The notes under the pieces were generated by a model. That model did no database searches. It was not told the origin of the DNA and saw only the letters and a list, made by a program, of their open reading frames with translations. From a virus: a stretch of DNA of 57,325 nt. The stretch lies in the IMG/VR virus record IMGVR_UViG_3300031867_000069; one strand, 5' to 3'. Below are positions 13,833 through 52,051 of the stretch, piece by piece. A program made the position numbers and the translations under genes. Numbering within the stretch: position 1 is the first letter of the stretch; each line of letters opens with the position of its first letter.

Positions 13833-13861
13833 TTCGCTAAAAAAACATGCCTCTTTATGAA
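13833..13861 (+). promoter_or_regulatory. Conserved promoter-like motif TTCGCT-N17-TATGAA
   Basis: Member of the 18-copy family. Intergenic, upstream of the SD and ATG 13880. Confidence 0.55.
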
Positions 13862-13879
13862 AAGAGAGGAGTGACATTT

Positions 13880-14129: not shown

Positions 14130-14158
14130 TTCGCGTATTTTACAACTTATATTATGAA
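14130..14158 (+). promoter_or_regulatory. Promoter-like motif TTCGCG-N17-TATGAA
   Basis: ttcgcgtattttacaacttatattatgaa. Intergenic, upstream of gene 14198. Confidence 0.6.
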
Positions 14159-14197
14159 AAGAATCATTTTTTCAATATTTTAAAGGAGGTTTCTATT

Positions 14198-14435: not shown

Positions 14436-14464
14436 GTCGCGTAAATTACAACTTATATTATGAA
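14436..14464 (+). promoter_or_regulatory. Promoter-like motif GTCGCG-N17-TATGAA
   Basis: gtcgcgtaaattacaacttatattatgaa, directly abutting the terminator. Confidence 0.6.
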
Positions 14465-14504
14465 AAGAATCATTTTTAAATAACTTTTAATGGAGGTATC
14501 TATA

Positions 14505-14755: not shown

Positions 14756-14762
14756 GCTTTTG

Positions 14763-14791: not shown

Positions 14792-14808
14792 AGGAGGCGA
14801 TTATATTT

Positions 14809-15099: not shown

Positions 15100-15104
15100 T
15101 GATT

Positions 15105-15133
15105 GAGGCCTTAAACAAGGTCTCTTTCTTTTT
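15105..15133 (+). terminator. Cassette terminator (GAGGCCTT-AAAC-AAGGTCTC)
   Basis: Same hairpin as 14728, then a T-run. Confidence 0.75.
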
Positions 15134-15160
15134 CGTTTATTTTACACGGTATATTATGAA
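15132..15160 (+). promoter_or_regulatory. Promoter-like motif TTCGTT-N17-TATGAA
   Basis: ttcgtttattttacacggtatattatgaa, abutting SD AGGAG. Confidence 0.5.
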
Positions 15161-15177
15161 AGGAGATGAATTATAAT

Positions 15178-15333: not shown

Positions 15334-15354
15334 AAGAAAAACAAATAAGAATTT

Positions 15355-15383
15355 GAGCTCTTTGACAAGGGCTCTTTCTTTTT
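15355..15383 (+). terminator. Cassette terminator (GAGCTCTT-TGAC-AAGGGCTC)
   Basis: Near-identical to 14028 and 14407. Confidence 0.75.
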
Positions 15384-15412
15384 GTCGCGTAAATTACAAC
15401 TTATATTATGAA
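15384..15412 (+). promoter_or_regulatory. Promoter-like motif GTCGCG-N17-TATGAA
   Basis: Identical to the 14436 copy. Confidence 0.6.
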
Positions 15413-15456
15413 GACTTTTGTTCTTAATACATAAAAAATAAAGGAGGATGAGATCA

Positions 15457-15705: not shown

Positions 15706-15724
15706 GAGGATTAATAATTAGACT

Positions 15725-15752
15725 GAGACCTTAAACAAGGTCTCTTTCTTTT
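15725..15752 (+). terminator. Cassette terminator (GAGACCTT-AAAC-AAGGTCTC)
   Basis: Perfect 8-bp stem, then a T-run. Confidence 0.8.
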
Positions 15753-15779
15753 CGCTAAAATAACATGTTCCTTTATGGA
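15751..15779 (+). promoter_or_regulatory. Promoter-like motif TTCGCT-N17-TATGGA
   Basis: ttcgctaaaataacatgttcctttatgga (AACATGTTCC spacer subtype). Confidence 0.55.
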
Positions 15780-15801
15780 ATAATTAGAAAGGAGGTTTAC
15801 T

Positions 15802-15985: not shown

Positions 15986-16166
15986 AATAGGCGCAATTAT
16001 AGGCACTATAATTACTACCATATTACATTTTTCACATAAAACATTTGGAGAATTGGATATCAATCACAATGGCGACGTTTGTCGATTAAAGTTAAATTCC
16101 AAAGAAATTTCGAAAAAGAATAAAAAGAAAGTTGCGCTTAAAATTATTCATATTTCGCATGAATAA
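15960..16166 (+). pseudogene. 5'-truncated remnant of a small membrane-protein gene
   Basis: The open frame (...LIGAIIGTIITTILHFSHKTFGELDINHNGDVCRLKLNSKEISKKNKKKVALKIIHISHE*) has no ATG and no SD. Its 5' end is overwritten by the terminator. Confidence 0.4.
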
Positions 16167-16182
16167 CATTTGCTATTATGGA
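16154..16182 (+). promoter_or_regulatory. Promoter-like motif TTCGCA-N17-TATGGA
   Basis: ttcgcatgaataacatttgctattatgga. It overlaps the 3' end of the remnant ORF. Confidence 0.5.
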
Positions 16183-16220
16183 ACCGAAAGGTTTTTAATA
16201 TTTTAAAGGAGGTTTTTATC

Positions 16221-16827: not shown

Positions 16828-16856
16828 TTCGCGCATTTTACAACTTGTATTATGAA
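16828..16856 (+). promoter_or_regulatory. Promoter-like motif TTCGCG-N17-TATGAA
   Basis: It starts immediately after the TAA stop. 34 nt (16825-16858) are identical to 18023-18056. Confidence 0.6.
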
Positions 16857-16892
16857 GATATTGGTTATTACCGAAAGGAGGATTGATTAGCT

Positions 16893-18025: not shown

Positions 18026-18054
18026 TTCGCGCATTTTACAACTTGTATTATGAA
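18026..18054 (+). promoter_or_regulatory. Promoter-like motif TTCGCG-N17-TATGAA
   Basis: Identical to the 16828 copy. The track ORF start 18050 is the ATG inside the motif. Confidence 0.6.
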
Positions 18055-18097
18055 GAACATTAATTGTTCGAAAATTATATTTACTGGAGGTACAAAA

Positions 18098-19508: not shown

Positions 19509-20446
19509 AAAAATTAAAAATCACAAAAAATGTAACTAGAGCTTTTGGTAAAGCTAAACTACAGCTAAAAAAGCATAGTCCAGAAATCTTGGTTATTTCT
19601 GGTGTTGTTGGCACAGTTGCAGCAGGTGTAATGGCTTGTAAAGCAACTACTAAGGCTTCTGATATTTTGGAAGAAATGCATGAATCTATGGATCAGATTC
19701 ATAAAGTAAATGAAATGGCGGAAGAAAATGAAAACATTTCTTATGATGAAAACGATCTTAAGAAAGACACAACTATGGTTTATGTTCAGACAGGCGTTAA
19801 GTTTGCTAAACTTTATGGTCCTTCTTTAGCCGTTGGTATTCTATCAATCACTAGCATTCTTGTTGGTCATAACATCCTTCGCAAGAGAAATCTAGCGTTA
19901 GCAGCTGCTTACACAACCGTTTCTAATAGCTTTAAAGCTTATAGAGATCGTGTTGTGGATCGTTTCGGTAAAGATCTAGATCGTGAATTACGTTATGATG
20001 TTAAAGCAAAAGAAGTAGAAGAAACTGTTGTTGATGAAAACGGCAATGAAACTACTGTTAAGAATACTGTGAATGTTATTGATCCTAACCAAGTAAGCGA
20101 CTTCGCTCGAATCTTTGACGATGGTAACATTGGATGGGAAAAAGATTCCGAACACAATCTGGCATTCCTTAAGATGCAACAGAATTACGCGAATGATATT
20201 CTACAAACCAGAGGATATCTGTTCCTGAATGAAGTTTATGACATGCTTGGCTTTAACAGAACTAAAGCTGGTCAAGTAGTTGGCTGGTATTATGACGAGA
20301 AAAATCCAACTGGTGATAACTTCGTTGACTTTGGTATTTATCGTGGTGAATCTCCAGCAGTTAGAGCATTTGTTAACGGTGACGAACGTAGCATCTTGCT
20401 AGACTTTAATGTTGATGGTGAAATTCTTAACAGAGTATATGAATAA
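19505..20446 (+). CDS. Membrane-anchored protein, paralog of 17252..18025 (313 aa)
   Basis: Shares the N-terminal TM module and the RNLALAAAYT / RNAALATAYQ segment with 17252. ATGA overlap with the upstream gene. Confidence 0.7.
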   Translation: MKKLKITKNVTRAFGKAKLQLKKHSPEILVISGVVGTVAAGVMACKATTKASDILEEMHESMDQIHKVNEMAEENENISYDENDLKKDTTMVYVQTGVKFAKLYGPSLAVGILSITSILVGHNILRKRNLALAAAYTTVSNSFKAYRDRVVDRFGKDLDRELRYDVKAKEVEETVVDENGNETTVKNTVNVIDPNQVSDFARIFDDGNIGWEKDSEHNLAFLKMQQNYANDILQTRGYLFLNEVYDMLGFNRTKAGQVVGWYYDEKNPTGDNFVDFGIYRGESPAVRAFVNGDERSILLDFNVDGEILNRVYE

Positions 20447-26350: not shown

Positions 26351-26379
26351 TTCGCGATATTTACATCGTGTATTATGAA
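26351..26379 (+). promoter_or_regulatory. Promoter-like motif TTCGCG-N17-TATGAA
   Basis: ttcgcgatatttacatcgtgtattatgaa, abutting SD AGGAGG. Confidence 0.6.
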
Positions 26380-26392
26380 AGGAGGCGATTAT

Positions 26393-28774: not shown

Positions 28775-28803
28775 TTCGCGTAAAACACATGTTCCTTTAT
28801 GGA
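28775..28803 (+). promoter_or_regulatory. Promoter-like motif TTCGCG-N17-TATGGA
   Basis: ttcgcgtaaaacacatgttcctttatgga. Confidence 0.6.
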
Positions 28804-28845
28804 ATCATACTGATTCAGAATTATATTTTAAAGGAGGACGAATCT

Positions 28846-29160: not shown

Positions 29161-29192
29161 GGAGATCTTAAACAAGGTCTCCTATTATTTTT
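29161..29192 (+). terminator. Cassette-type terminator (GGAGATCTT-AAAC-AAGGTCTCC)
   Basis: 9-bp stem with the same loop context (TTAAACAAGG) as the 14.7-15.7 kb terminators. Confidence 0.7.
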
Positions 29193-29713: not shown

Positions 29714-29742
29714 TTCGCGAGAATAACATGTTCCTTTATGAA
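29714..29742 (+). promoter_or_regulatory. Promoter-like motif TTCGCG-N17-TATGAA
   Basis: ttcgcgagaataacatgttcctttatgaa. Confidence 0.6.
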
Positions 29743-29764
29743 AACATATAAAGGAGGATTTATT

Positions 29765-30003: not shown

Positions 30004-30041
30004 AAGGTGTCTGAAACATGGCACCTTATTCTTTTATTTTT
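30004..30041 (+). terminator. Rho-independent terminator
   Basis: 8-bp stem (aaggtgtc / ggcacctt), then attcttttattttt. Confidence 0.65.
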
Positions 30042-30056
30042 GAAAGGAGAATTTAC

Positions 30057-30932
30057 ATGAGCAAAAAATATGAATTCACGGGAGAAACTAAAACGATGCA
30101 GGATGGCAATATTTTGCATAGAATCATAGCTTGTAAAACATTCGGAAATGTAAAATCCGGAGAACTCGGCGGATGGATCGAAAACGAAAATAATTTGAGT
30201 CATGAAGGAAATGCTTGGGTTTCTGAAAATGCTAGTGTTTATGGAAATGCTAAGGTTTCTGGAAATGCTGAGATTTCTGGAGATGCTAGAGTTTATGGTG
30301 ATGCTGAGATTTTTGGAGATGCTGAGATTTCTGGAGATTCTTGGGTTTCTGGAAATGCTAAGGTTTCTGGAAATGCTGAGATTTCTGGTGATTCTTGGGT
30401 TTTTGGAAATGCTGAGATTTCTGGAAATGCTGAGATTTCTGGAAATGCTAGTGTTTATGGAGATTCTGGGGTTTATGGTGATGCTAAGATTTCTGGAGAT
30501 GCTAAGATTTCTGGAGATGCTGAGATTTCTGGTGATTCTTGGGTTTATGGTGATGCTAGGGTTTATGGTTATTCTTGGGTTTATGGAAATGCTAGGGTTT
30601 ATGGTGATGCTAGGGTTTCTGGAAATGCTATAGTTTATGGAGATGCTAGAGTTTTTGGAAACGCTTGGGTTTTTGGAAATGCTGAGATTTCTGGAAATGC
30701 TGAGATTTCTGGAGATGCTGATTATGCAACAATCAAAGGATTTGGAACTAACTTTAGAAATACTACTTTCTTTAAGTGTTCCGACGGATCTATAAAGGTC
30801 AATTGCGGTTGTTTCTATGGAACTTTAAAAGAGTTTAGAAAACAGGTAAATAAAACTAGATCTGGAAAAATCAGAAAAGAATATCTTATGATTGCAGATC
30901 TAATGGAAATGCATTTTTCAAATAAAACTTAG
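30057..30932 (+). CDS. Hexapeptide-repeat (left-handed beta-helix type) protein of unknown function (291 aa)
   Basis: SD AAAGGAGAA lies before ATG 30057. There are 28 consecutive G-[ND]-[AS]-x-[VI]-x hexads. The C-terminal domain contains a GCFYGTLKEF motif. Confidence 0.75.
   Translation: MSKKYEFTGETKTMQDGNILHRIIACKTFGNVKSGELGGWIENENNLSHEGNAWVSENASVYGNAKVSGNAEISGDARVYGDAEIFGDAEISGDSWVSGNAKVSGNAEISGDSWVFGNAEISGNAEISGNASVYGDSGVYGDAKISGDAKISGDAEISGDSWVYGDARVYGYSWVYGNARVYGDARVSGNAIVYGDARVFGNAWVFGNAEISGNAEISGDADYATIKGFGTNFRNTTFFKCSDGSIKVNCGCFYGTLKEFRKQVNKTRSGKIRKEYLMIADLMEMHFSNKT
30207..30719 (+). repeat. 18-bp tandem repeat array (about 28.5 units, consensus ggaaatgctgagatttct)
   Basis: Read directly from the sequence. 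It encodes the hexapeptide repeats. Confidence 0.9.
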
Positions 30933-31607: not shown

Positions 31608-31636
31608 CACGCGTAAATAACATGCTCCTTTACGAA
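31608..31636 (+). promoter_or_regulatory. Promoter-like motif CACGCG-N17-TACGAA (inside the intron)
   Basis: A variant copy. Its CACGC can pair with GCGUG at 32471-75, closing the insertion. Confidence 0.45.
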
Positions 31637-31650
31637 AGGAGGAATTAAGT

Positions 31651-31879: not shown

Positions 31880-32149
31880 ATGACCAATACCGAAAAACAA
31901 ATAGAAAATATGGGGTATGAAATTCGTGTTAGTGATATGCTTTGCAATTATGTTGTTTATGAGAACAAAAAAGAAGATCAAGAAATAATCTTGGAATGGG
32001 ATGATGAAGATCAATATTGTATGTTGTTTTCACAAACAATATCGAGAGAAAAGGATTGGCTCGGACATACACGACAAATGCCTCAAGCATTAACTATTCG
32101 TGAATTGGAAATATTTACAGCTAGACTTAAAGAATTGAGAGAGGCCTAA
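31880..32149 (+). CDS. Intron-nested small protein (89 aa)
   Basis: TATGAAAGGAAGG lies before ATG 31880. Confidence 0.55.
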   Translation: MTNTEKQIENMGYEIRVSDMLCNYVVYENKKEDQEIILEWDDEDQYCMLFSQTISREKDWLGHTRQMPQALTIRELEIFTARLKELREA

Positions 32150-32180
32150 TTAATGGTCTCTTTCTCTTTTTTATTTTTTT
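32140..32180 (+). terminator. Rho-independent terminator
   Basis: Stem agaggcc / ggtctct, then a long T-run. Confidence 0.7.
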
Positions 32181-32191
32181 GAAATCTAAAA

Positions 32192-32220
32192 TTCGCGAAA
32201 TACGCACTTCCTTTTATGAA
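32192..32220 (+). promoter_or_regulatory. Promoter-like motif TTCGCG-N17-TATGAA (inside the intron)
   Basis: ttcgcgaaatacgcacttccttttatgaa, abutting SD AGGAG. Confidence 0.55.
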
Positions 32221-32234
32221 AGGAGTGAATTATT

Positions 32235-32528: not shown

Positions 32529-32557
32529 TACGCGAAAAATACATAGCGTATTATGAG
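32529..32557 (+). promoter_or_regulatory. Promoter-like motif TACGCG-N17-TATGAG with no ORF downstream
   Basis: It lies between the P4-P6 and P7 halves of the intron core. No SD or credible ORF follows in the next ~300 nt. Confidence 0.4.
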
Positions 32558-32834
32558 AAATAGACTTGTGAAGACAAATGACACATGAATTTGCGGTTTG
32601 TATATTTTATACAAATTGAGAGAAGTGAGAAACCTGATATCGGATCATAGGAAAATGAGACTATGTGAACATAGCAAGTTCTATTCTTTTTTATTTTTGA
32701 AACGAACCTGTAGAGGCTATCCCCTATGCCTTCTGGGCGGGGGAGTAGGGCTACTATTGATACGTAGCTGGATTTTAGGAAACGAAGTCCATGAAAACCG
32801 AAATGGTGTCCTATTGTTTTGAATTTGTGTGTGA

Positions 32835-34696: not shown

Positions 34697-34894
34697 ATGC
34701 ATGATGCATCAATGTTTATAGTATTTTTGCTAATATTGGCATTAATACTTATATTGGTAGCCGGGGCTTTCGTGTTTATACACGAGGCTCTGGAAGACCG
34801 AAGAAAAAGAAAAATAAAGAAAGAACAACGTATGATTCGTAGGGAATGCTACGAATATTGGAAGGAGAAGTATTCAAATGACAAACAAGAATGA
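34697..34894 (+). CDS. Small membrane protein (65 aa)
   Basis: SD AAGGAGG. TM segment FIVFLLILALILILVAGAFVFI, then a basic tail. Confidence 0.6.
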   Translation: MHDASMFIVFLLILALILILVAGAFVFIHEALEDRRKRKIKKEQRMIRRECYEYWKEKYSNDKQE

Positions 34895-35321
34895 AACACT
34901 AAGAGAAAAAGCAAAAGCATGTAACAGCAACATTCAAGATCTTATCAACAAGTTAACCGATATTCAAAAGGATATCAGTGAGTATGTGAATAAGAGTAAT
35001 GCAATCGATGCTTTAGAGGAATTAAATATGCCTATTAATCCGATGATAGCTTTTCAATTAATTCAAATTCAAGTTAAGATGTTATGCGACAGTACAGCAT
35101 TGGGAGAACATTTGGACACAGTAGTAAACAGTCTGCAAACTGTCGCTAATGCCTTTAACAAAGACATGTTTGGCGACAACAATAAGCATACAAATCTTAA
35201 TGATATTCCTAAAGATGCTGTTCAATTGAAAGGAAAAATCGGAACTGTTGATAGCTTCCTCACTGATATTGAAGCTATAATGAAAATGATGGAAGATGAA
35301 GAAGGTGAGAACAATGAATAA
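34878..35321 (+). CDS. Hypothetical protein (147 aa)
   Basis: SD GGAAGGAG. Confidence 0.6.
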   Translation: MTNKNETLREKAKACNSNIQDLINKLTDIQKDISEYVNKSNAIDALEELNMPINPMIAFQLIQIQVKMLCDSTALGEHLDTVVNSLQTVANAFNKDMFGDNNKHTNLNDIPKDAVQLKGKIGTVDSFLTDIEAIMKMMEDEEGENNE

Positions 35322-35881: not shown

Positions 35882-35916
35882 GGGCTAGTTTTAATAACTA
35901 GTCCTTTTATTTTTCC
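35882..35916 (+). terminator. Rho-independent terminator
   Basis: Stem gggctagtt / aactagtcc, then ttttattttt. Confidence 0.75.
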
Positions 35917-35941
35917 ATTTTTGAGGATGTTTTTAGTGTTT

Positions 35942-36129
35942 ATGCCCACTTTTGTGGCCAAAAGCCCACTTTATGCCCACTTTTGGCCAATAAAAATGGC
36001 CACAAGAATTGTCCAATTTGGGTCATTTTTGGTCGTTTTTGGGGTAAAAAAGGGCATTTTTGGGGTATTTTGTGGTGTTTTTTCACATTTTTTGAGAATT
36101 TTTAAGGTTTGTGGCCAAAAGCCCACTTT
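35942..36129. repeat. Short direct repeats (iteron-like): ATGCCCACTTTTG x2 and TTTGTGGCCAAAAGCCCACTTT x2, plus multiple TGGCCA
   Basis: The 13-mer is at 35942 and 35973. The 22-mer is at 35951 and 36108. TGGCCA occurs about 7 times between 35955 and 36249. Confidence 0.85.
36021..36110. repeat. Nine helically phased T4-6 tracts (10-nt period), predicted bent DNA
   Basis: ggtcattttt ggtcgttttt ggggtaaaaa agggcatttt tggggtattt tgtggtgttt tttcacattt tttgagaatt tttaaggttt. Confidence 0.8.
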
Positions 36130-36196
36130 TATTTTAATTTATTTAAGAAAAAAGTATATATATTTAAAAAGAATTGACAAAAAAAAACGGGTTTTT

Positions 36197-36302
36197 GGCC
36201 ACAGGCATATTTTAGGGTCGAATAAGGTTGAAAATGTGCATTTGGCCACAGGCATATTTTAGGGTCGAATAAGGTTGAAAATGTGCATTTGGCTATATTT
36301 TT
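36197..36302. repeat. Perfect 47-bp tandem repeat, 2 full units plus a partial third
   Basis: ggccacaggcatattttagggtcgaataaggttgaaaatgtgcattt occurs at 36197-36243 and 36244-36290, followed by ggctatattttt. Confidence 0.9.
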
Positions 36303-36315
36303 CAATTTTTTAAAA

Positions 36316-36344
36316 TTCGCGTGAAAAACATGCCCTTTTATGAA
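36316..36344 (+). promoter_or_regulatory. Promoter-like motif TTCGCG-N17-TATGAA heading the nuclease / RNA polymerase operon
   Basis: ttcgcgtgaaaaacatgcccttttatgaa. Confidence 0.6.
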
Positions 36345-36424
36345 GGGAAGTACAAATATGTCGTATTTTTACGGTGTATCATTTCCTTTTGAGTTTTGTT
36401 TAAGATGAAAGGAGAGAGCATTTA

Positions 36425-36721
36425 ATGGCAAAACTAGAAAGTATATTTCAAAAAGAATTGATGGATGAAATTAGGGAACGTTATCCTGGGTGTGTTATTA
36501 TCAAGAATGATCCGAATTATATTCAAGGATTTCCAGATTGGACAATTCTGTATAAAGACAAATGGGCTGTTATAGAAGCAAAGCGCAGTGCATCTGCTAA
36601 ACATCAGCCTAATCAAGACTTTTATGTAAAAAAGCTCAACGATATGTCTTATGCAGCTTTTGCATATCCTGAGAATAAGGAGGTTATATTACGTGAAATT
36701 CAATCAGCATTTAAATCTTGA
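36425..36721 (+). CDS. VRR-NUC-type PD-(D/E)XK nuclease (98 aa)
   Basis: Contains GFPDWTILYKDKWAVIEAKRS....QPNQDFYVKKLND (the G.PD...E.K...Q pattern). SD AAAGGAGAG. Confidence 0.6.
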   Translation: MAKLESIFQKELMDEIRERYPGCVIIKNDPNYIQGFPDWTILYKDKWAVIEAKRSASAKHQPNQDFYVKKLNDMSYAAFAYPENKEVILREIQSAFKS

Positions 36722-37250
36722 AGGATTGCATGCACCATTTAGTGCCAGTCAAAACTCTTGGCTAAGATATGATGACGGCAAAGCAATGGAAGTATACAAA
36801 AATAAAAAAGCGGCATTGATAGGAACCAAATTACATCAATGGGCAAAAGAAACTATAGATTTGGGCATAAAGCAACCTAGATCCAAGAAGACCTTATATT
36901 CGTATGTAAACGATGCTATAGGGTACCAAATGGATACTGAGGTTGTTTTATTTCATTCAGAAAGATTTTTCGGAACAGCAGATGCTATTTGTTTTAGAAA
37001 TGGTGTTTTGAGAATTCATGATCTAAAGACAGGGAAAACACCAGTACATATGGAGCAGCTAGAAATATATGCAGCTCTTTTTTGTTTGGAATACAGAACC
37101 AAACCTGGCGAAATAAAAATGGAGTTACGAATATATCAGAATGATGAAGTACTAGTTCATAAGCCAACTGCTGAGGATATTCTCCCTATTATGGATAAAA
37201 TAATACATTTGGATAATTTGTTATCAAAGATTGATCAAGAAGGAGAATAG
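36693..37250 (+). CDS. RecB/Cas4-like PD-(D/E)XK nuclease (185 aa), GTG start
   Basis: SD AAGGAGG lies 7 nt before GTG 36693. Contains FGTADAICF...LRIHDLKTGK...QLEIYAALF. Confidence 0.6.
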   Translation: MKFNQHLNLEGLHAPFSASQNSWLRYDDGKAMEVYKNKKAALIGTKLHQWAKETIDLGIKQPRSKKTLYSYVNDAIGYQMDTEVVLFHSERFFGTADAICFRNGVLRIHDLKTGKTPVHMEQLEIYAALFCLEYRTKPGEIKMELRIYQNDEVLVHKPTAEDILPIMDKIIHLDNLLSKIDQEGE

Positions 37251-37253: not shown

Positions 37254-40088
37254 ATGAACAATATCATAAAAGATATGGATGAACATGTGCTAATGCATTA
37301 CGGAATGCCTAAACGTTCTGGACGATATCCTTGGGGAAGTGGTGATAATCCATATCAGCGTACAGGCGATTTTATGGGTAGAGTTGACGAGCTAAGAAAA
37401 CAGAATTTTACTTATACTGATGAAAAAGGAAAAGTTTGGACAGGCGATACTGCTATTGCCAAATCTATGGGTTTGTCAACAACTCAATTTAGAACCGAAT
37501 ATTCTATTGCTAAAAACGAACGTAGACTCTATCAAGTAAATACTGCTAAAGCGTTGCAGAAAGATGGACTCGGTGCTACAGAAATCGGTAGAAAAATGGG
37601 TATACCAGAATCATCAGTTAGATCCTTATTGAATGCAAAATCCGAAACAAAAATGAATCAGGCTAAAGAAACAGCTAAATTCATAAAAGAGCAGATTGAT
37701 AAAAAAGGAATGATTGATGTTGGTACTGGTGTTGAAAGAGAACTAAACATATCTAAGGAAAAACTTAATCAGGCCTTATATTTACTCGAAAGAGAAGGCT
37801 ATCCTATATATAAAGGCGGCATTCCCCAAGTAACAAACATAGGTAATCAAACAAATCAAAAGATTATTTGTAAACCTGGTACAGAACATAAAGAAATTTA
37901 TGATTTTGACAAGGTTCATGCTCTTAATGAGGATAACTATATTTCTAGAGATGACGGTAAAACTTTCGAAAAGAAATTCCATTATCCAGAAAGTATGGAT
38001 TCAAAACGTCTTATGATTAGATACAAAGAGGACGGCGGCATCGATAAAGATGGTGTTGCAGAAATTAGACCAGGTGTTGACGATCTTTCACTTGGCGAAT
38101 CTCGATATTCTCAGGTTCGTATAATGGTTGATGGTAAAAAATACATAAAAGGTATGGCTGTATATGGCGATCCTAAAGATTTTCCTAAAGGTGTTGACGT
38201 TATATTTAACACTAACAAATCAAAGTCTGTATCTAAACTAGATGTTCTTAAAGATATTAAGAGCGATCCAGATAATCCATTTGGTTCTTTAATTAAAGAC
38301 GCTACACAAGGCGGTCAATATTGGTATACGGATTCTAAGACCGGAAAGAAGAAGCTTGGACTTATTAATAAGACAAGAGAAGAAGGCGATTGGGATGATT
38401 GGAAAGATGCTCTGCCTTCACAGTTCTTAGCTAAGCAGCCTATACAAATGATTAAGAAACAATTAAAGTTAGCAGTTGCTGATAAGGAAGCAGAATATGC
38501 TGATATTATGTCTATTAATAATCCTACTATTAAGAAATATTATCTTAATAAGTTTGCGGATGAATGTGATTCGACGGCTGTACATTTAAAAGCAGCCGCA
38601 TTACCAGGACAAAAGTATCACGTTATTATTCCTAATAATACGCTTAAAGAGAATGAAGTGTATGCGCCGGGCTATGCTTCAGGCACAAAGCTTGCTTTAA
38701 TAAGATATCCACATGGTGGAACATTTGAGATTCCTATATGTACAGTAAACAATAAGAATGCATTAGGTAAAAAACTTATAGGTACAACTCCTATAGATGC
38801 TGTATGTATTAATTCTAGAGTTGCTGAAAGATTATCAGGAGCGGATTTTGATGGCGATACGGTTATGTGCATTCCAACCCATGATCGTCAAGGAAAAGTT
38901 AAGATTACTTCTACTCCTCCTTTGAAAGGTCTAGAAGGTTTTGACCCAAAGATGGCCTATCCAGAACGTCCAGGTATGCAGTATATGAAAAATCCTAAGA
39001 CTGGAAGTGATAGCACTCCAGTGCAAATGGGAATGATTTCGAATCTTATAACCGATATGACTTTACTTGGCGCTACCTCTGATGAATTGGCTGCTGCCGT
39101 ACGTCACAGTATGGTAGTTATTGATGCTGGTAAGCACAAGCTGGACTATAAGCAGAGCGAGATAGATAACAACATAGCCGCTCTAAAGAAAAAGTATCAA
39201 GTGGGTGGCGCTTCTACTTTAATGTCTAGGGCTAAAGGTGAGTATGATGTACCCAAAAGGCAGGGTAATCCCCGTGTCAATTTAAAGGGCAAAACATATT
39301 ATGACCCTACCCGTCCCGAGGGAGCCCTAGTATATAAGACGGCAGACGACGCCAAATGGATACAAACAAAAGTCAATAAACGTACTGGAGAAGTAAAAAA
39401 AGTTGAGAGGATTCGTACTCAGAAGAGTACCAATATGGCAGAGACGGATGACGCATATACCCTAGTGTCTAAATTTAACACCCCTAAGGAGAGAGCCTAT
39501 GCCGACTATGCCAATAAAATGAAATCAATGGCTAACCAGGCCCGTATAGAAGCATCTAATTCGGGCAAAATAGCCTATTCAAGATTGGCAAAAGCAGAAT
39601 ATCAAAAAGAAGTAGATTCTTTGAATGCAAAATTAAACAAAGCTTTACTTAATTCTCCTAGAGAACGTCAAGCTCAACGTATGTCTAACGCTGAAATGAA
39701 TATAAAAAAGAGAGCCTATTATGATGAAACGGGCGCAAAGATGAAAACTAAGGATATAAAGAAAGCCAGTCAGCAAGCAATATCAAAGTATCGTGATGAA
39801 GTAGGCTCTGTATCTAGAAGAAACCGTTCTATTACTATAGATGATAGAGAATGGGAAGCTATTCAAAAGGGTGCAATAAGCGAAAGCGTGCTTAATAAGA
39901 TACTGAATAATAGTGATCCTGACAAACTAAGAGAAAGAGCAACACCTAAAACTTCTAAAGGTTTAAACACTGCTAAAGTAAACAGAATCAAAGCTTTGTC
40001 TGCTTCTAATTACACATTAGAACAAATCGCTAACAAACTTGGTATTTCAACTTCAACAGTTGCTAAGTATTTGAAAGGAGGAAATTAA
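37254..40088 (+). CDS. YonO / RdRP-like two-barrel single-subunit RNA polymerase candidate with flanking HTH domains (944 aa)
   Basis: The core motifs are ALIRYPHGGTFEIP (R484), then LSGADFDGDTVMCIPTHD (D531-D535, nt 38844-38858), then GMISNLITD...AAAVRHSMVVIDAGKHKLDYK. The HTH segments are GATEIGRKMGIPESSVRSLL near the N-terminus and YTLEQIANKLGISTSTVAKYLKGG at the C-terminus. Confidence 0.6.
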   Translation: MNNIIKDMDEHVLMHYGMPKRSGRYPWGSGDNPYQRTGDFMGRVDELRKQNFTYTDEKGKVWTGDTAIAKSMGLSTTQFRTEYSIAKNERRLYQVNTAKALQKDGLGATEIGRKMGIPESSVRSLLNAKSETKMNQAKETAKFIKEQIDKKGMIDVGTGVERELNISKEKLNQALYLLEREGYPIYKGGIPQVTNIGNQTNQKIICKPGTEHKEIYDFDKVHALNEDNYISRDDGKTFEKKFHYPESMDSKRLMIRYKEDGGIDKDGVAEIRPGVDDLSLGESRYSQVRIMVDGKKYIKGMAVYGDPKDFPKGVDVIFNTNKSKSVSKLDVLKDIKSDPDNPFGSLIKDATQGGQYWYTDSKTGKKKLGLINKTREEGDWDDWKDALPSQFLAKQPIQMIKKQLKLAVADKEAEYADIMSINNPTIKKYYLNKFADECDSTAVHLKAAALPGQKYHVIIPNNTLKENEVYAPGYASGTKLALIRYPHGGTFEIPICTVNNKNALGKKLIGTTPIDAVCINSRVAERLSGADFDGDTVMCIPTHDRQGKVKITSTPPLKGLEGFDPKMAYPERPGMQYMKNPKTGSDSTPVQMGMISNLITDMTLLGATSDELAAAVRHSMVVIDAGKHKLDYKQSEIDNNIAALKKKYQVGGASTLMSRAKGEYDVPKRQGNPRVNLKGKTYYDPTRPEGALVYKTADDAKWIQTKVNKRTGEVKKVERIRTQKSTNMAETDDAYTLVSKFNTPKERAYADYANKMKSMANQARIEASNSGKIAYSRLAKAEYQKEVDSLNAKLNKALLNSPRERQAQRMSNAEMNIKKRAYYDETGAKMKTKDIKKASQQAISKYRDEVGSVSRRNRSITIDDREWEAIQKGAISESVLNKILNNSDPDKLRERATPKTSKGLNTAKVNRIKALSASNYTLEQIANKLGISTSTVAKYLKGGN

Positions 40089-40091: not shown

Positions 40092-40373
40092 TTGAATAAT
40101 GATTATGATGAAAACTATTCTATTGAAAAGAATTACATGTTAACAACAGTTGACAATCCTTTTGATCCTTTTGAGCAATTTGTTTCTTGGTTCATGTTCG
40201 ACACTGAAAAAGGTTATAATACTTGTTCTACTTTAGCAAGGATAGCGAATATTTCAGATGATATGTCTCAAAAAGAAGTAATCGATGAAACGAATAGAGC
40301 TATCGATGAAATAATAAAGTATGACTTTTTAGACATATATAAAAAAGTAGAACGAGATAATATCAATTCATAA
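40092..40373 (+). CDS. Hypothetical conserved phage protein (93 aa), TTG start
   Basis: SD AAAGGAGG lies 11 nt before TTG 40092. Contains TVDNPFDPFEQFVSWFMFDTEKGYNTCSTLARIA. Confidence 0.5.
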   Translation: MNNDYDENYSIEKNYMLTTVDNPFDPFEQFVSWFMFDTEKGYNTCSTLARIANISDDMSQKEVIDETNRAIDEIIKYDFLDIYKKVERDNINS

Positions 40374-40398
40374 CCATATCCATATTATTTTATACATA

Positions 40399-40462
40399 GG
40401 GGGGGTGTCGAAAATTACACCCCCTCCCCACATCGCCGCCCTCCTCGAAAATTCCCCGGGGG
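40399..40462. other. GC-rich island with hairpin and palindrome (candidate cos / packaging site)
   Basis: A G7 run is followed by the stem GGGGGTGT (40401-08) / ACACCCCC (40417-24). TCGAAAATT occurs twice (40408 and 40445). CCCCGGGG lies at 40454-61. The island is unique within an otherwise AT-rich genome. Confidence 0.45.
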
Positions 40463-42359: not shown

Positions 42360-42374
42360 AGGACGGTGAGATTA

Positions 42375-43046
42375 ATGAATGATGAACTTTATCATCACGG
42401 TATCAAAGGTATGAAATGGGGCGTTCGTAGATATCAGAATAAAGACGGTAGTTTGACTCCTAGAGGAAAAAAGAAATATGGAACTAGAGAGAATTTTGAA
42501 AGGCACTTGGCCTCTAAAAAATTTAAAAAGAGTTCTCATAAACTTTCTGGTATAGAGAAGAAAAAGCCTATAAAGTCGGCTAAGGATATGACCGATGATG
42601 AATTAAAAAGTAGGATCAATCGTCTTCAAATGGAAAGGCAATATCTTGATTTAAATAAACAGATTTCTTCTTTAACTCCTAAAAAAGTGTCGAAAGGAGA
42701 ACAGTTCATCAAAGCAATCGGTAAAGACGTTATAGCTCCAGTTGCCAAAAATATTGGCAAACAATATTTGGAAAAAGCATTAAAGAAAAATCTAGGATTG
42801 GATATAAAAGATACTTTGGAAGGTCTAGAAAAAGAAGCAAAGAAATTAAGACTAAAAAAAGAAATAAATGATCTAAAGAATCCTAAAAAAGACTATAAAG
42901 ATGAATTTGTTAAGAATTGGAACAAACATAAAAGATGGAAAAAAGCAGTTGAAGAATATGAAAATGAAGCTGCTGATGATTTTGTAAATAGTAATGCTGA
43001 TTCCGGAAAGCAATATGTAGAAACAGCTTTGGCTATACGTAAATAG
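42375..43046 (+). CDS. Lys-rich protein with N-terminal LYHHGIKGMKWGVRR motif (223 aa)
   Basis: Shares a 53-bp exact DNA segment with 44839..45414. It sits immediately upstream of terL. Confidence 0.65.
   Translation: MNDELYHHGIKGMKWGVRRYQNKDGSLTPRGKKKYGTRENFERHLASKKFKKSSHKLSGIEKKKPIKSAKDMTDDELKSRINRLQMERQYLDLNKQISSLTPKKVSKGEQFIKAIGKDVIAPVAKNIGKQYLEKALKKNLGLDIKDTLEGLEKEAKKLRLKKEINDLKNPKKDYKDEFVKNWNKHKRWKKAVEEYENEAADDFVNSNADSGKQYVETALAIRK
42379..42431 (+). repeat. 53-bp exact direct repeat, copy 1
   Basis: atgatgaactttatcatcacggtatcaaaggtatgaaatggggcgttcgtaga, identical to 44867-44919. Confidence 0.95.
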
Positions 43047-44838: not shown

Positions 44839-45414
44839 ATGACTAATTACATTATAAAAACAAAGGATGATGAACTTTATCATCACGGTATCAAAGGTAT
44901 GAAATGGGGCGTTCGTAGACAACAGAAAAAACAGGCAAAGAAAGATTTTGCAAACATGCCAAGTAAGAAGAAAGGCCCAGTTGATATTGGTAATTCCGCA
45001 GCACGAAGTTATTTTAAGTCGCAAAATCTTATAAGAAAGGCTGATAAAACTAGAAGTTTTGCCAAGTATAGGAAATTAAATAAAAAAGCCCATCGTTTGC
45101 AAAAAATAGCAGATAGAAAAACAGGTCAATTAAACGAGGCGCAAGTTAAAGCCGGTCGCTATAGAATCGCTAGAAATAGAAACTATAGAAGAACAGCTTT
45201 ATCCGCTGTTATAGGAACAGCAGCTGGAGTAGCTGCTATGGGACTTGGTGCAGCAGCATTGGGCGTTCCTATTGCTGGTGCGGCATACATTACAAGTAGA
45301 TATGCTAGTGGTGGTAGACGATATCGAAGAGAACAGATTAGTTATAAGAAGTTTGCAACAAAAGAAAGCAAGCCGATAAAGAAAAATAAATCTAAATCTA
45401 AATCTAGTAAATAA
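44839..45414 (+). CDS. Basic protein with N-terminal LYHHGIKGMKWGVRR motif and C-terminal Gly/Ala-rich hydrophobic segment (191 aa)
   Basis: SD AAGGAGG. Hydrophobic segment ALSAVIGTAAGVAAMGLGAAALGVPIAGAAYI. It lies between terL and the portal gene. Confidence 0.65.
   Translation: MTNYIIKTKDDELYHHGIKGMKWGVRRQQKKQAKKDFANMPSKKKGPVDIGNSAARSYFKSQNLIRKADKTRSFAKYRKLNKKAHRLQKIADRKTGQLNEAQVKAGRYRIARNRNYRRTALSAVIGTAAGVAAMGLGAAALGVPIAGAAYITSRYASGGRRYRREQISYKKFATKESKPIKKNKSKSKSSK
44867..44919 (+). repeat. 53-bp exact direct repeat, copy 2
   Basis: Identical to 42379-42431. Confidence 0.95.
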
Positions 45415-46717: not shown

Positions 46718-48538
46718 ATGGATTATGATTTTAGTGGTTGGGCCACCAGAAATGATCTATTATGTGGAGATGGACGTACCATTCGAAAGAATGCGTTTAT
46801 TGAAAATGATGGCGAAACCGTTCCATTAATATATAATCACGATCATTCAAACCCTGATGCTGTTTTGGGTCACGCTCTTTTACAAAACAGAGATGAAGGC
46901 GTTTATGCCTATTGCAAATTCAATGATACAGAATCAGGGCAGCATGCCAAAGAACTTGTCAAAAATGGCGACGTTCGTTCTTTATCTATTTATGCTAATA
47001 AGCTTAAACAGATTGGACGCGACGTTATTCATGGCAGTATTAAAGAATTAAGTTTAGTTCTTGCAGGCGCTAATCCGGGAGCTTACATTGATTTTGTAAT
47101 GGCTCACGGCGACGACGAAGAAGACGGATTATATGCGAACTATGACGAAAGTGCATTAGTGCTTTATCATTCAGATAGTTCTGCTAAAAAGGAGGAAAAA
47201 GAAATGAAGGAAGAGAAAAATAAGACTCCCGAGTCTAACGATAAGGGCGATGAAAAAACAGTTCAAGACGTTCTTGACACTTTCAATGACGAACAGACTA
47301 AGGTTCTATATGCATTGATCGGTCAAGCACTACAGGATGCTGGTGTAGAACCAGAAGATTTAGAAGATGATGAAGAAGGAGACGATGAAGATATGAAACA
47401 TAACGTATTTGATAACGATGTGCAGACATCACAGAATGTTCTAACCCATGCCGATCAGGAAGCTATTATTGAACTTGCCAAATCTAAGAATGTTGGTAGT
47501 TTCCAGTCAGCTCTAGAACTTTATGCTGAAGATCATCTTGCGCATGGTATTGATAGTATTGAAACTCTATTCCCAGAATACGAACTAACAAATCCTGGTG
47601 CTCCAGAGATGCTCACTAGAGACCAGACATGGGTTGAATCTGTTCTAAGCAAAGCTCATAAAAGTCCTATCAGTAGAATCAGAACAAGACATGCTGATGT
47701 TAGAGCAGAAGATATCAGAGCTATGGGTTATAAAAAGACTAAGGAAAAGCAGCTTATTGCTAATCTAAAGCTGTTGAACAGAACTACAGATCCTCAGACA
47801 GTTTATGTTAAGGATAAACTAGAAAGAGATGATATTATTGATATCACTGATTTCGATGTAGTAGAGTATCAGCGCAAAATTATGCGTATGGCATTGAACG
47901 AAGAAATTGCTAAAGCTATTCTTATTGGTGATGGCAGAGAAGAAGGCGACGAAGGCAAGATTCAAGAAACTCATATTCGTTCTATTTGGAAAGATGAAGA
48001 TCTATACACAATTCGTGCTGATGTTGATGTTGCAGCAGCAAAGAAGGAACTTCAGGGCTCTAATACATCCGCTAATTTTGGCGAAAATTATGTTTACGCA
48101 GAAGCTATCATTACTGCAGCTCTTTATGCTCGTGAAAAGTATAAGGGTAGTGGTAGTCTAGATTTCTATTGCACACCACATCTTCTAAATGTTATGTTGT
48201 TAGCTAGAGACCTAAATGGCCGCAGAATTTATGATTCAAAGTCTGATCTTGCAGCGGCATTAAATGTAGCTGATATTAAGACAGTTGAACAGTTCGAAGG
48301 TAAGACACGTACAACTTCTGATGGTAAAACTAAGAAGCTTCTAGGTCTATTTGTAAACATGAGTGACTATCAGATCGGTTCCACAAAGGGTGGCGAAATC
48401 ACAAACTTTGAAGATTTCGATATTGACTTCAATAACTATAAGTATCTAATGGAAACTAGACTATCTGGTGCATTAACAAAAGCATTCTCAGCTATTGCTC
48501 TTGAAGAACCAGTTGCGGAAGCTGAAGTATCAGGCTGA
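46718..48538 (+). CDS. Prohead protease - acidic scaffold-like linker - HK97-fold major capsid protein fusion (606 aa)
   Basis: The N-terminus resembles S78/U35 proteases (VPLIYNHDHSNPDAVLGH...SLSIYAN...IKELSLVLAGANPGAYI). A Glu/Asp/Lys-rich linker spans about residues 150-225. The C-terminal ~380 aa are capsid-like. Confidence 0.75.
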   Translation: MDYDFSGWATRNDLLCGDGRTIRKNAFIENDGETVPLIYNHDHSNPDAVLGHALLQNRDEGVYAYCKFNDTESGQHAKELVKNGDVRSLSIYANKLKQIGRDVIHGSIKELSLVLAGANPGAYIDFVMAHGDDEEDGLYANYDESALVLYHSDSSAKKEEKEMKEEKNKTPESNDKGDEKTVQDVLDTFNDEQTKVLYALIGQALQDAGVEPEDLEDDEEGDDEDMKHNVFDNDVQTSQNVLTHADQEAIIELAKSKNVGSFQSALELYAEDHLAHGIDSIETLFPEYELTNPGAPEMLTRDQTWVESVLSKAHKSPISRIRTRHADVRAEDIRAMGYKKTKEKQLIANLKLLNRTTDPQTVYVKDKLERDDIIDITDFDVVEYQRKIMRMALNEEIAKAILIGDGREEGDEGKIQETHIRSIWKDEDLYTIRADVDVAAAKKELQGSNTSANFGENYVYAEAIITAALYAREKYKGSGSLDFYCTPHLLNVMLLARDLNGRRIYDSKSDLAAALNVADIKTVEQFEGKTRTTSDGKTKKLLGLFVNMSDYQIGSTKGGEITNFEDFDIDFNNYKYLMETRLSGALTKAFSAIALEEPVAEAEVSG

Positions 48539-51673: not shown

Positions 51674-52051
51674 ATGATTAGTTTCAGACAAAAGGGAGAT
51701 TTCTCTAAATTAACAAGATTTTTGGAAAGAGCAAAAGAGGTTACACACCTTGGCGTTCTCGACAAGTATGGTAAAGAGGGAGTGGCAGCCCTTTCGTCTG
51801 CAACGCCTCATGATACCGGAAAAACTGCTGAATCATGGTATTACGAAATAGAGAATAAAAATGGCTCAGCGACCATTTCATTTTGCAATTCAAATATTCA
51901 AAATGGAGTTAATATAGCAATAATATTGCAATATGGACATGCCACTAAAGGCGGAGGATGGGTTCAGGGAAAAGATTACATCAACCCTGCAATCCGTCCT
52001 ATTTTTGATAAAATCGCAGAAGATGCTTGGAAGGAGGTCTCTAAATTATGA
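51674..52051 (+). CDS. HK97 gp10-family tail-component protein (125 aa)
   Basis: Contains ...ATPHDTGKTAESW...ILQYGH. ATGA overlap with the TMP start. Confidence 0.5.
   Translation: MISFRQKGDFSKLTRFLERAKEVTHLGVLDKYGKEGVAALSSATPHDTGKTAESWYYEIENKNGSATISFCNSNIQNGVNIAIILQYGHATKGGGWVQGKDYINPAIRPIFDKIAEDAWKEVSKL

Follow-up and report, generated by a model that had tools for sequence, protein, structure and literature searches.

The DNA stretch IMGVR_UViG_3300031867_000069 from the IMG/VR virus records (57,325 nt; hereafter, the window, meaning the whole stretch that was analysed) represents a siphovirus genome of the cos type in permuted form, in which all genes lie on one strand. At positions 37254-40088 of the plus strand, it carries an ORF (open reading frame) of 944 amino acids (aa) with an ATG start, which an earlier note made from the sequence alone had proposed to encode a phage RNA polymerase (RNAP) resembling YonO and the RNA-dependent RNA polymerases (RdRPs) of eukaryotes, with two barrels and flanking helix-turn-helix (HTH) domains. 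The encoded protein almost certainly has this two-barrel fold and belongs to a known phage family, PHROG 4291. Upstream of its gene, the non-structural half of the window contains 18 copies of a strand-specific motif of approximately 30 nt, which is the best candidate for the sequence that the protein would recognize. The polymerase gene is the third of an operon that opens with an endonuclease and an exonuclease gene, and it is followed by a small ORF and a probable cos site.

The earlier note quoted six peptide segments of the ORF, all of which are present in the order and spacing that it gave and with the aspartates correctly numbered. Segment ALIRYPHGGTFEIP spans aa 481-494, LSGADFDGDTVMCIPTHD spans aa 527-544 and includes D531, D533 and D535, GMISNLITD is found at aa 593-601, and AAAVRHSMVVIDAGKHKLDYK at aa 613-633; the N-terminal HTH segment, GATEIGRKMGIPESSVRSLL, corresponds to aa 107-126 and the C-terminal one, YTLEQIANKLGISTSTVAKYLKGG, to aa 920-943. 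Invariance was judged on 80 aligned homologues, whose identity to the query ranges from 43 to 92%. The residues fixed in all 80 sequences are R484, P486 and H487; S528, G529, A530, D531, D533, G534 and D535; M592, G593, N597, L598 and D601; D624, K627 and H628; and, in an upstream beta-rich region, Q287, R289, K299, G300, D315 and K333. The note had cautioned that a D-x-D-G-D triad is short enough to occur by chance; since the key residues are invariant over this range of identities, the observed motif set far exceeds a chance DxDGD.

Structure prediction followed by a Foldseek search, which the note had suggested as a check, placed QDE-1 and RDR2 first. The full-length AlphaFold model (pLDDT 84.9, pTM 0.75) gave QDE-1 or RDR2 as its top 15 PDB matches (best E 3.9e-8), followed by the largest subunits of multisubunit RNAPs. 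With a model of the core alone (aa 240-745; pLDDT 93.6, pTM 0.87), the top 18 matches were QDE-1/RDR2 (E from 8.8e-9 to 3e-4, TMq 0.35-0.49, 398-559 columns), and after them came local matches to NRPD1, Rpb1 and beta-prime, several of them at approximately 2.5 Å over 112-167 columns. The 50 PDB matches listed for the two models are all two-barrel polymerases, the best at probability 1.0, and the fold matches in a viral library are phage 'RdRP' proteins, crAss-like proteins and giant-virus RNAP subunits. Because confident models match QDE-1/RDR2 and then Rpb1/beta-prime, the reading of the core as a double-psi beta-barrel (DPBB) polymerase is supported by the fold search, in which only two-barrel polymerases appear among the matches listed, as well as by the order of the motifs.

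In the model, the putative first barrel (aa 245-345) has strands at aa 253-256, 268-271, 285-292, 296-304 and 316-319. It lies inside the core region that Foldseek aligns with QDE-1 and is N-terminal to the catalytic barrel, as in QDE-1. This beta-rich domain carries the invariant residues R289, K299, K333 and D315, among which may be the counterparts of the universal K, K and D that face the active site (PMC2919709). A helical connector leads to the second, six-stranded barrel (aa 454-545), in which, in both models, the metal-binding loop (aa 527-535) precedes the last strand. The helices at aa 588-604 and 609-628 sit where the bridge and trigger helices would be expected and are putatively identified as such by their order. 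In every single-chain two-barrel RNAP, DPBB-A is succeeded by a bridge helix (PMC10770324). After the long helices, the model continues with a beta-rich domain, a long helical region and the terminal HTH.

The Pfam families above threshold for the whole protein are HTH families only. At the N-terminal side, HTH_IclR matches aa 103-127 (E 3.6e-5), and the family profile matches the 'CAP REPEAT' chain 8vd6_A (E 7e-7). At the C-terminus, Sigma70_r4 matches aa 919-936 (E 4.2e-6; 26.6 bits, the cutoff being 24.1), and so do Sigma70_r4_2, HTH_23 and HTH_3 in this part. These matches, and the helical units at aa 64-126 and 906-940 and the winged-helix-like unit at aa 160-205 of the model, confirm HTH segments at both ends of the protein. 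As to the further proposal that the C-terminal one resembles sigma region 4, Sigma70_r4 scores above its cutoff, but the match covers only profile positions 20-37 of 50, and a dozen other HTH families score alike; the C-terminal domain is a generic three-helix HTH. For the catalytic core, the Pfam RdRP family (PF05183) matched the core fragment below threshold (E 0.14, 11.3 bits against 23.8), the match falling exactly over the stretch from DFDGD to GMISN.

A second element of the window was first picked up by a repeat search as a recurring intergenic sequence. It is a strand-specific motif of approximately 30 nt in three blocks, with the general form nTCGCR-N4-TTACA-N5-TATNRTGA(A/G)A; in the window, the consensus is TTCGCg-N-aaat-nACA-N5-taTTATGAA and the blocks read TCGCG, TTACA and TATTATGAA. 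The pattern TTCGCG-N17-TATGAA with up to two mismatches has 20 matches, against 5.5 expected, and none of 100 shuffles reaches 20. A position weight matrix (PWM) built from the sites detects 18 plus-strand sites of at least 25.8 bits and one weaker site (14.4 bits), with no minus-strand hit at or above the 12-bit cut-off in the window. The sites are confined to positions 13833-36316, the non-structural half, and none is located in the structural module. Many copies come directly after a hairpin and a T-run (repeat families D5-D8).

The centres of the three blocks are approximately one helical turn apart. The TATAAT-like block stands 5 nt from TTACA and 14 nt from TCGCR and has no TG extension. 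Because this spacing misfits the -35/-10 geometry, the motif is unlike a sigma-70 promoter, and that assignment was rejected. In compact copies (16991, 26351 and several sites of phage 1706), the Shine-Dalgarno sequence begins right after the motif; since the two abut, a start 7 nt past TATNRT, taken as a '-10' element, would remove the Shine-Dalgarno sequence, and a start at the conserved purines right after TATNRT would be compatible with its being kept.

Two classes of the motif can be distinguished by the sequence between TTCGCG and TATGAA. Class 1, with AACATGyyCCTTT, comprises the copies at 13833, 15751, 28775, 29714, 32192 and 36316; class 2, with TTTACAACTTATAT, comprises those at 14130, 14436, 15384, 16828, 18026 and 26351. 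The copy that precedes the polymerase operon belongs to class 1 in most IMG/VR relatives. These may represent two temporal or strength classes. Terminator-like hairpins (GAGSYCTTWAACAAGGRCTC, then a T-run) are present at 14015-15753, 29162-29190 and 32141-32169, and those between 14 and 15.8 kb mostly abut a motif copy, forming terminator-promoter cassettes around very small genes. Phage Rima has an analogous hairpin family (CCCGACCCCGCAAGGGGTTTGGGTTT) of 11 copies.

The motif recurs, in register and at syntenic positions, in three distant relatives, Lactococcus phage 1706 (TnCACAtGTTTTACAtannCTATAGTAGAaA, 11 copies), CapnMurica (cTCGCA-N4-TTaCa-N4-tTATAATGA, 9 copies) and Rima (cTCGCA-N4-TTACA-nGnCC-TATAgTGAGAC, 12 copies), with no minus-strand hit in any of the three; CapnMurica and Rima also have weaker counterparts of the site at 36316. 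A degenerate pattern, applied to the 80 IMG/VR loci that carry the polymerase, has 99 hits on the plus strand and 0 on the minus strand; 98 of them fall within the 576 kb that precede the polymerase gene and 1 within the 377 kb that follow it. In 45 of 70 IMG/VR loci, the distance from a site to the polymerase start downstream is 600-1300 nt, and the consensus of this site, CGCGaaAAAaACATgCCCTTTTATGAagaGAg, matches the site at 36316 of the window. At least 120 IMG/VR stretches, with a GC content of 30-60%, contain the exact pattern of the actinophage type, up to six times per stretch and on one strand; 107 of these 120, among the matches listed, share at least three proteins with Rima or CapnMurica. 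Approximately 20 motif positions are conserved across phages whose hosts belong to two phyla, and block 1 falls into the sequence classes CGCG, CGCA and CACA. In the searchable literature, including descriptions of the intergenic regions and promoters of Arthrobacter cluster AU, the motif is undescribed; this cross-phylum motif is the part of the present account that was not found in earlier work. A distinct repeat family, four copies of CTATCACGAAAAAACTTCGGGA(AAACTTCGGGATTG), occupies positions 7635-8080 of phage 1706, in the 450-nt gap before the polymerase gene.

The protein itself is by contrast well represented in databases. In PHROGs, it matches phrog_4291, 'RNA-dependent RNA polymerase' (E = 0, 1196.6 bits), with residues 5-942 aligned to profile positions 4-907 of 909. 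Using tblastn, relatives of 37-58% identity were found in 250 phage records, from phages of Arthrobacter, Gordonia, Streptomyces, Rhodococcus, Microbacterium, Curtobacterium, the Lactococcus 1706 group and Faecalibacterium and from human-gut siphoviruses. GenBank labels most of these homologues 'HTH DNA-binding domain protein', and others 'RNA-dependent RNA polymerase', 'hypothetical' or 'structural protein'. The closest GenBank relative, on a human faecal scaffold, is 58% identical and the closest metagenomic relative 92%. Counted as 50%-identity representatives, the family comprises 2397 clusters at E ≤1e-3 and 902 at E ≤1e-30, and at least 517 IMG/VR stretches encode a polymerase relative. 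PHROG 4291 is the proposed signature gene of a phage supergroup to which Lactococcus phage 1706, Faecalibacterium phage Oengus and the actinophage clusters AM, AU, AW, BI, CC, DJ and EL belong.

Ruprich-Robert and Thuriaux (2010) placed the phage 1706 protein among five YonO-like families with eight universal active-site residues (PMC2919709). In 2021, a preprint on how actinophages and phages of Firmicutes share ancestry described exactly this kind of protein and reported an HHpred match of 95.7% to PF05183, HTHs at both ends and DxDGD; it also proposed the polymerase-like protein as the signature gene of the supergroup and described it as the only DNA-binding annotation among the genes conserved supergroup-wide (10.1101/842583). 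The polymerase interpretation is right, but it is already published, and PHROG 4291 and several GenBank annotations encode the same idea. The window protein is a new member of a known family that was predicted in the literature.

With regard to YonO, the motif order that the earlier note had pointed out is indeed the same, at near-equal spacing: the invariants of the YonO family, R492-x-P494-H495, D535-x-D537-G538-D539, G593-x-x-S596-N597 and I624-D625-x-A627-K628, are spaced nearly as in the window protein. The sequence relation, however, is marginal. BLASTP against YonO (sequence taken from the SPbeta record) gave nothing significant (E 1.8 or worse); one of its alignments runs through the active site and pairs LIRYPH...GADFDGD with ILRSPH...QFDNDGD. 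Using hhalign, the comparison with the YonO family reached E 0.016 (probability 2.9%) over 82 columns across the active-site stretch, and that of the catalytic sub-region E 9e-4 (probability 22%) over 27 columns ending at R-x-P-H. Because the sequence similarity is marginal, the window protein is not a YonO orthologue; a direct relationship was likewise rejected. The C-termini also differ. The two are separate families, and by its modelled fold the window protein is nearer to the eukaryotic RdRPs.

The remainder of the window is organized as follows (Table 1). Positions 2-13452 contain the C-terminus of the tape-measure protein and tail genes, and a block of small genes extends from 13.8 to 18 kb. 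The replication/recombination module comprises a primase-polymerase gene (21892-25842, phrog_4210), a single-stranded DNA-binding or annealing protein and a helicase. In the polymerase operon, the stop codon of the exonuclease gene is 4 nt before the polymerase ATG. The equivalents of the small ORF that follows are 1706 gp76, ReqiPoco6 gp107, CapnMurica gp88 and Rima gp87, and the polymerase gene is the penultimate one at the right genome end in these four phages, with the same gene order. The GC-rich block after the small ORF, in a genome of 35% GC, is probably the cos site; in ReqiPoco6, an annotated 3' cos overhang comes right after the homologous small ORF, and in 33 of 80 IMG/VR loci, fewer than 600 nt separate the end of the polymerase gene from that of the contig. 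Beyond this block lie a small-terminase-like ORF and genes for an HNH endonuclease, an SH3 protein, a connector, the large terminase, the portal, a putative protease-capsid fusion and tail proteins. No late promoter, terminator or distinct conserved element was found between the polymerase gene or cos and the small-terminase-like gene.

Table 1. Coordinates of the polymerase gene, the segments of its product, neighbouring features and the motif copies in the window.
Feature	Position	Strand	Basis and remarks
Polymerase ORF	37254..40088	+	Single-chain two-barrel (DPBB) polymerase, PHROG 4291 member; profile match, models, Foldseek
N-terminal conserved tag, aa 11-36 (HVLMHYGMPKRSGRYPWGSGDNPYQR)	37284..37361	+	Predicted disordered, nearly invariant, DUF7211-like
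Tandem HTH-like units, aa 62-127	37437..37634	+	HTH_IclR aa 103-127; helices 64-71, 76-103, 108-115, 119-126
Winged-helix-like unit, aa 153-205	37710..37868	+	Helices 160-163, 168-180; strands 185-191, 199-205; putative, from topology alone
First beta-barrel region, aa 245-345, putative DPBB-B (beta-subunit-like)	37986..38288	+	Strands and invariant residues
Second beta-barrel, aa 454-545, DPBB-A (beta-prime-like)	38613..38888	+	Six strands; R-x-P-H and metal-binding loop; Foldseek matches to Rpb1, beta-prime and NRPD1 are local
R484-Y-P486-H487	38703..38714	+	Fixed in 80 sequences; pairs with YonO R492-S-P494-H495
D531-F-D533-G534-D535, catalytic triad	38844..38858	+	Invariant; pairs with YonO DNDGD
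Helix aa 588-604 with G593-x-I-S-N597, putative bridge-helix equivalent	39015..39065	+	Helix in both models; YonO G593-x-x-S596-N597
Helix aa 613-633 with H618-S-M...I-D624-A-G-K627-H628	39090..39152	+	Invariant D624, K627, H628; YonO I624-D625-x-A-K628
C-terminal three-helix HTH, aa 906-943, sigma region 4-like	39969..40082	+	Pfam; helices 906-917, 922-929, 933-940
Endonuclease gene, first of operon	36425..36721	+	phrog_93; syntenic in 1706, CapnMurica, Rima
RecB/PD-(D/E)XK exonuclease gene	36651..37250	+	phrog_3953, E 5e-73; Pfam DUF2800/PDDEXK_1
Conserved small ORF, always after polymerase gene	40092..40373	+	phrog_4303, E 6e-32
GC-rich block (GGGGGGGTGTCGAAAATTACACCCCCTCCCCACATCGCCGCCCTCCTCGAAAATTCCCCGGGGG), probable cos/linear genome end	40391..40455		Sequence; between small ORF and small-terminase-like gene
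Motif copy	13833..13863	+	PWM 31.2 bits
Motif copy	14130..14160	+	PWM 38.1 bits
Motif copy, right after hairpin and T-run	14436..14466	+	PWM 37.3 bits; repeat family D7
Motif copy, AGGAGG directly after TATGAA	14763..14793	+	PWM 25.8 bits
Motif copy	15132..15162	+	PWM 30.9 bits
Motif copy	15384..15414	+	PWM 36.7 bits
Motif copy, AACATG...TTTATG variant	15751..15781	+	PWM 34.6 bits
Motif copy	16154..16184	+	PWM 29.5 bits
Motif copy	16828..16858	+	PWM 36.6 bits
Motif copy, AGGAGG immediately 3' of TATGAA	16991..17021	+	PWM 33.8 bits
Motif copy	18026..18056	+	PWM 36.6 bits
Motif copy	26351..26381	+	PWM 36.7 bits
Motif copy	28775..28805	+	PWM 35.7 bits
Motif copy	29714..29744	+	PWM 38.1 bits
Motif copy, weaker	31608..31638	+	PWM 27.5 bits
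Motif copy	32192..32222	+	PWM 33.4 bits
Motif copy, weaker	32529..32559	+	PWM 26.4 bits
Promoter-like motif before endonuclease-exonuclease-polymerase operon (TTCGCGTGAAAAACATGCCCTTTTATGAAGG)	36316..36346	+	PWM 36.4 bits

Several other regions of the window are repetitive or composite. A 400-nt non-coding region at 35905-36305, upstream of the promoter-like motif of the polymerase operon, contains direct and inverted copies of TTGTGGCCAAAAGCCCACTTT / TGGCCACAGGCAT, an AT-rich stretch (36140-36170) and a 47-nt tandem duplication (36184-36277); from its sequence, it looks like a replication origin or a regulatory array. Repeats of the CCACTTTT type also occur at approximately 34870-35230 in Rima and 4005-4202 in a short locus, L008, which in addition has a 10-nt tandem array at 3838-3927. 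In the replication module, positions 30144-30809 of the ORF 30018-30932 consist of approximately 24 head-to-tail units of 18 nt, which encode a beta-solenoid/bactofilin-like protein (Pfam B_solenoid_ydck, Bactofilin). The early region includes two paralogous DUF6353/phrog_2152 genes (17252-18025 and 19505-20446). Over its full length, the 606-aa protein encoded at 46718-48538 corresponds to phrog_3270, 'head maturation protease' (E 2e-213); as does 1706 orf10, it also weakly matches major-head-protein profiles, and it may be a protease-capsid fusion. Since ORFs are open at both ends of the window (52045-57325 and 2-1576), the tape-measure gene is cut by the window ends; the ORF from 52045 to the window end (1760 aa) and the ORF 2-1576, which has tape-measure matches, are not in frame when simply joined. 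The tape-measure gene contains repeats with a period of approximately 183 nt, and the minus-strand ORFs at 55119-56696 are antisense artefacts.

Considering these data together, we favour, with moderate confidence, a reading in which the protein is a phage DNA-dependent RNAP whose HTH arms read the promoters of approximately 30 nt, the late genes being transcribed by read-through across cos. In this mechanism, D531, D533 and D535 of the second barrel would hold the catalytic Mg2+, as the fold and the invariant residues suggest, and the first barrel and the following helix (G593...N597) would complete the active site. The terminal HTH modules would supply built-in promoter recognition, with the three-block motif as the best candidate target, and transcription would start at the purine just past the TATNRT block. 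The structural genes, approximately 30 kb without a motif copy, would be transcribed by read-through across cos as soon as the genome had become circular or concatemeric, by analogy with the late transcript of lambda and the single long late operon of YonO. The parts of this reading differ in strength. The modelled protein is very probably an active polymerase, and DNA-templated transcription of phage genes is its probable function; that it reads the conserved motif we consider only slightly more probable than the opposite. In favour of the reading are the invariance of the catalytic motifs, with the order and spacing seen in the proven RNAP YonO, and the location of the gene directly upstream of the packaging and structural genes, as in SPbeta. 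Neither a sigma factor nor any other rival transcription protein was found among the larger early ORFs of the window.

Several observations weigh against this reading. The global TM-scores are below 0.5 throughout, and for the first barrel, the counterparts of the two expected lysines and of the aspartate are only putative. The Pfam RdRP family is below threshold and absent from the whole-protein listing of 25 families, and the family profile searched against PDB sequences returned HTH proteins only, as did phmmer. No experimental or biochemical study of the PHROG 4291 family was found in the searchable literature. The closest solved structures are RNA-dependent enzymes, of which QDE-1 is reported to use DNA templates as well (PMC2950127, PMC9508822), and YonO, as a precedent, offers a single late promoter instead of numerous early ones. 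Simple scans found no motif in MT835495 or in locus L008, and the TATAAT-like block could be read by the host sigma-A with some phage factor. Finally, the polymerase operon itself stands behind a motif copy (36316); because of this, the first polymerase molecules must come from the virion, from a host promoter or from read-through.

Delivery with the virion is one way in which such an enzyme could act early, and the N-terminal tag bears on it. The tag has the form D-x-L-x-H-Y-G-x-x-R-x-S-G-R-Y-P-W-G-S-G, with G17, S22, G23, R24, G28 and G30 invariant in the 80-sequence alignment; pLDDT is below 50 at aa 1-22 and 29-37. The same tag is present in the polymerase homologues of 1706, CapnMurica, Rima and ReqiPoco6. 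In hhalign, it matches the N-termini of DUF7211 proteins at E 5.9e-5 over 11 columns (0.18 for the reversed control); Pfam gave no DUF7211 match on the tag, and a 45-aa DUF7211 query, intended to show how varied the tagged cargo is, gave nothing but proteins of 35-79 aa, an uninformative result. A DUF7211 tag (DELYHHGIKGMKWGVRR) also starts two small head-module proteins that flank the large terminase (42366-43046 and 44839-45414) and may be a capsid-targeting or processing signal. The 70-nt segments that encode it, 42374-42443 and 44862-44931, are 93% identical, and the tag occurs at the same genomic position in 1706 orf7 ('structural protein') and in the L008 gene 11123-11989. The polymerase homologue is labelled 'structural protein' in the ReqiPoco6 record because of its similarity to '1706_gp75 structural protein'. 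A more far-reaching scheme, in which the polymerase is packaged via its tag and injected with the DNA, its HTHs read the three-block promoters, it drives all early and middle transcription, and the operon promoter feeds the late genes across cos, is conceivable, and we regard it as doubtful. If true, the enzyme would be the siphovirus counterpart of the N4 and crAss virion RNAPs, common to hundreds of phages of Firmicutes and Actinobacteria, and the first of the two-barrel RNAPs for which a sigma-independent promoter code is defined.

Other functions can be envisaged for the same protein. The phage enzyme might transcribe only the structural/lysis operon, from another start or by processive read-through, while the host RNAP, perhaps with a small phage factor, reads the 18 motifs. 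Such a division of labour would follow YonO, which transcribes the late operon alone and from a single start (PMC5467207) and whose gene, like that of the window phage, lies directly upstream of the late genes. Because the polymerase gene stands behind a motif copy, it would also remove the bootstrapping problem, and the motif does hold a near-consensus TATAAT block. The architecture of the motif speaks against reading by the host: its block spacing misfits sigma-70-type -35/-10 elements, it lacks the TG extension, compact copies would lose the Shine-Dalgarno sequence if TATNRT were the -10 element, and some 20 positions are held constant across hosts of two phyla and genomes of 30-60% GC. A distinct conserved element was likewise not found between cos and the first late gene, and we regard this late-only role as unlikely. 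Considerably less probable is a polymerase associated with replication, whose HTHs would bind the iteron-rich region 35905-36305 and which would make origin-activating or primer RNA. Its gene does end the replication/recombination module, beside the nucleases, and upstream of it are iterons (TGGCCAC / CCCACTTTT) and an AT-rich stretch, with similar CCACTTTT repeats in the same place in Rima and L008; the phage, however, already has a primase-polymerase fusion (phrog_4210), and the 18 dispersed, strand-specific motifs before genes would be left unexplained.

A true RdRP, which would copy phage or host transcripts into antisense or double-stranded RNA, for instance in regulation or counter-defence, would agree with the nearest structures (QDE-1 and RDR2), with the PHROG and GenBank label 'RNA-dependent RNA polymerase' and with the weak Pfam RdRP match at the correct place. 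The label, however, derives from homology alone, the protein contains several DNA-binding HTH modules, and no RNA-silencing partners are encoded nearby; moreover, YonO, the sole phage relative tested, is DNA-dependent (PMC5467207), and QDE-1 itself is reported to copy DNA (PMC2950127, PMC9508822). We judge this function improbable, marginally more so than the replicative one. The opposite extreme is a catalytically dead, polymerase-like scaffold acting only as a DNA-binding regulator, as the SEA-PHAGES name 'HTH DNA-binding domain protein' implies. Most GenBank entries use that name, and only the HTH domains pass the Pfam thresholds; but neither the metal-binding triad nor the motifs next to it vary among the 80 homologues, even at 43% identity, a pattern not expected for a dead enzyme. 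This explanation is the least credible of all, and the DNA-dependent polymerase remains our preferred reading.

Single-chain two-barrel RNAPs are seen as present-day models of the enzyme from which all cellular RNAPs descend and, to our knowledge, only YonO and a few phage enzymes of this kind have been studied. That the present enzyme would be 'self-sufficient' and 'promoter-recognising', as the earlier note had put it, we infer, and the cross-phylum motif makes this claim for a two-barrel polymerase directly testable. Since the family has cultivable members (Lactococcus phage 1706 and phages of Streptomyces, Arthrobacter and Gordonia), promoter recognition by a minimal two-barrel enzyme free of sigma or TFB-like factors is directly testable as well. 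A compact enzyme-promoter pair of this kind might also be developed into an orthogonal tool for expression in Gram-positive hosts.

Among known systems, the promoter regulons of the T7 type offer a functional analogy, with many compact, strand-specific copies of approximately 25-30 nt that extend up to a purine-rich start and are placed after terminators; the T7 RNAP itself has an unrelated right-hand fold. The Rima motif (e.g., 9720-9755) contains CCCTATAGTGAG, which is the reverse complement of the T7 promoter core (CTCACTATAGGG), and shows a partial likeness to the T7 promoter (CTATAGTGAG). Because the shared core, CTATAG, is palindromic, this likeness is probably a coincidence.

The enzymes gp66 of phi14:2, a crAss-like phage, and gp96 (virion) and gp64 (non-virion) of Thermus phage P23-45 are also single-chain two-barrel enzymes; they transcribe early phage genes, and two of them come with the virion (PMC10770324). 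None of them appears in the top 50 PDB fold matches of the window protein, and their domain context differs, being part of a giant cargo or tape-measure protein, with no flanking HTH reported. QDE-1 and RDR2 (PF05183) are the best structural matches and share the catalytic loop, but at 10-14% identity and TM below 0.5 and without HTH modules; they act in RNA silencing, whereas the window protein is encoded by a double-stranded DNA phage.

YonO is a processive DNA-dependent RNAP proven to transcribe the late genes of SPbeta, and its study explicitly left promoter recognition open (PMC5467207). Like the window protein, it is phage-encoded, combines two barrels in one polypeptide and has its gene directly upstream of the packaging and structural genes in SPbeta. 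Its C-terminus, in contrast to the HTH of the window protein, is a CxxC...CxxC zinc-ribbon-like element (invariant C799, C802, C816 and C819), and it has neither the N-terminal tag nor the N-terminal HTH array. YonO has one mapped late start site, whereas the window phage has a multi-copy motif in its early and middle region. The YonO start site was mapped in the yonN-yonK spacer, at position 2225998 of B. subtilis 168 (PMC5467207). In this spacer (approximately 30600 and 30440 of SPbeta, minus strand), there are two copies of (T/G)TCATTTATGA(A/G)GGT, which resemble the downstream block of the motif, TTTATGAAGG; the likeness of TCATTTATGA(A/G)GG to the motif block is tentative.

The closest correspondence is with the PHROG 4291/1706 gp75 family, whose members are like the window protein in length, in the N-terminal tag and in the HTH at each end, and whose genes occupy the same place, in the order endonuclease, exonuclease, polymerase, small ORF and genome end. 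We found no essential difference from this family, of which the window protein is a new member from an uncultured, low-GC (approximately 35%) phage.

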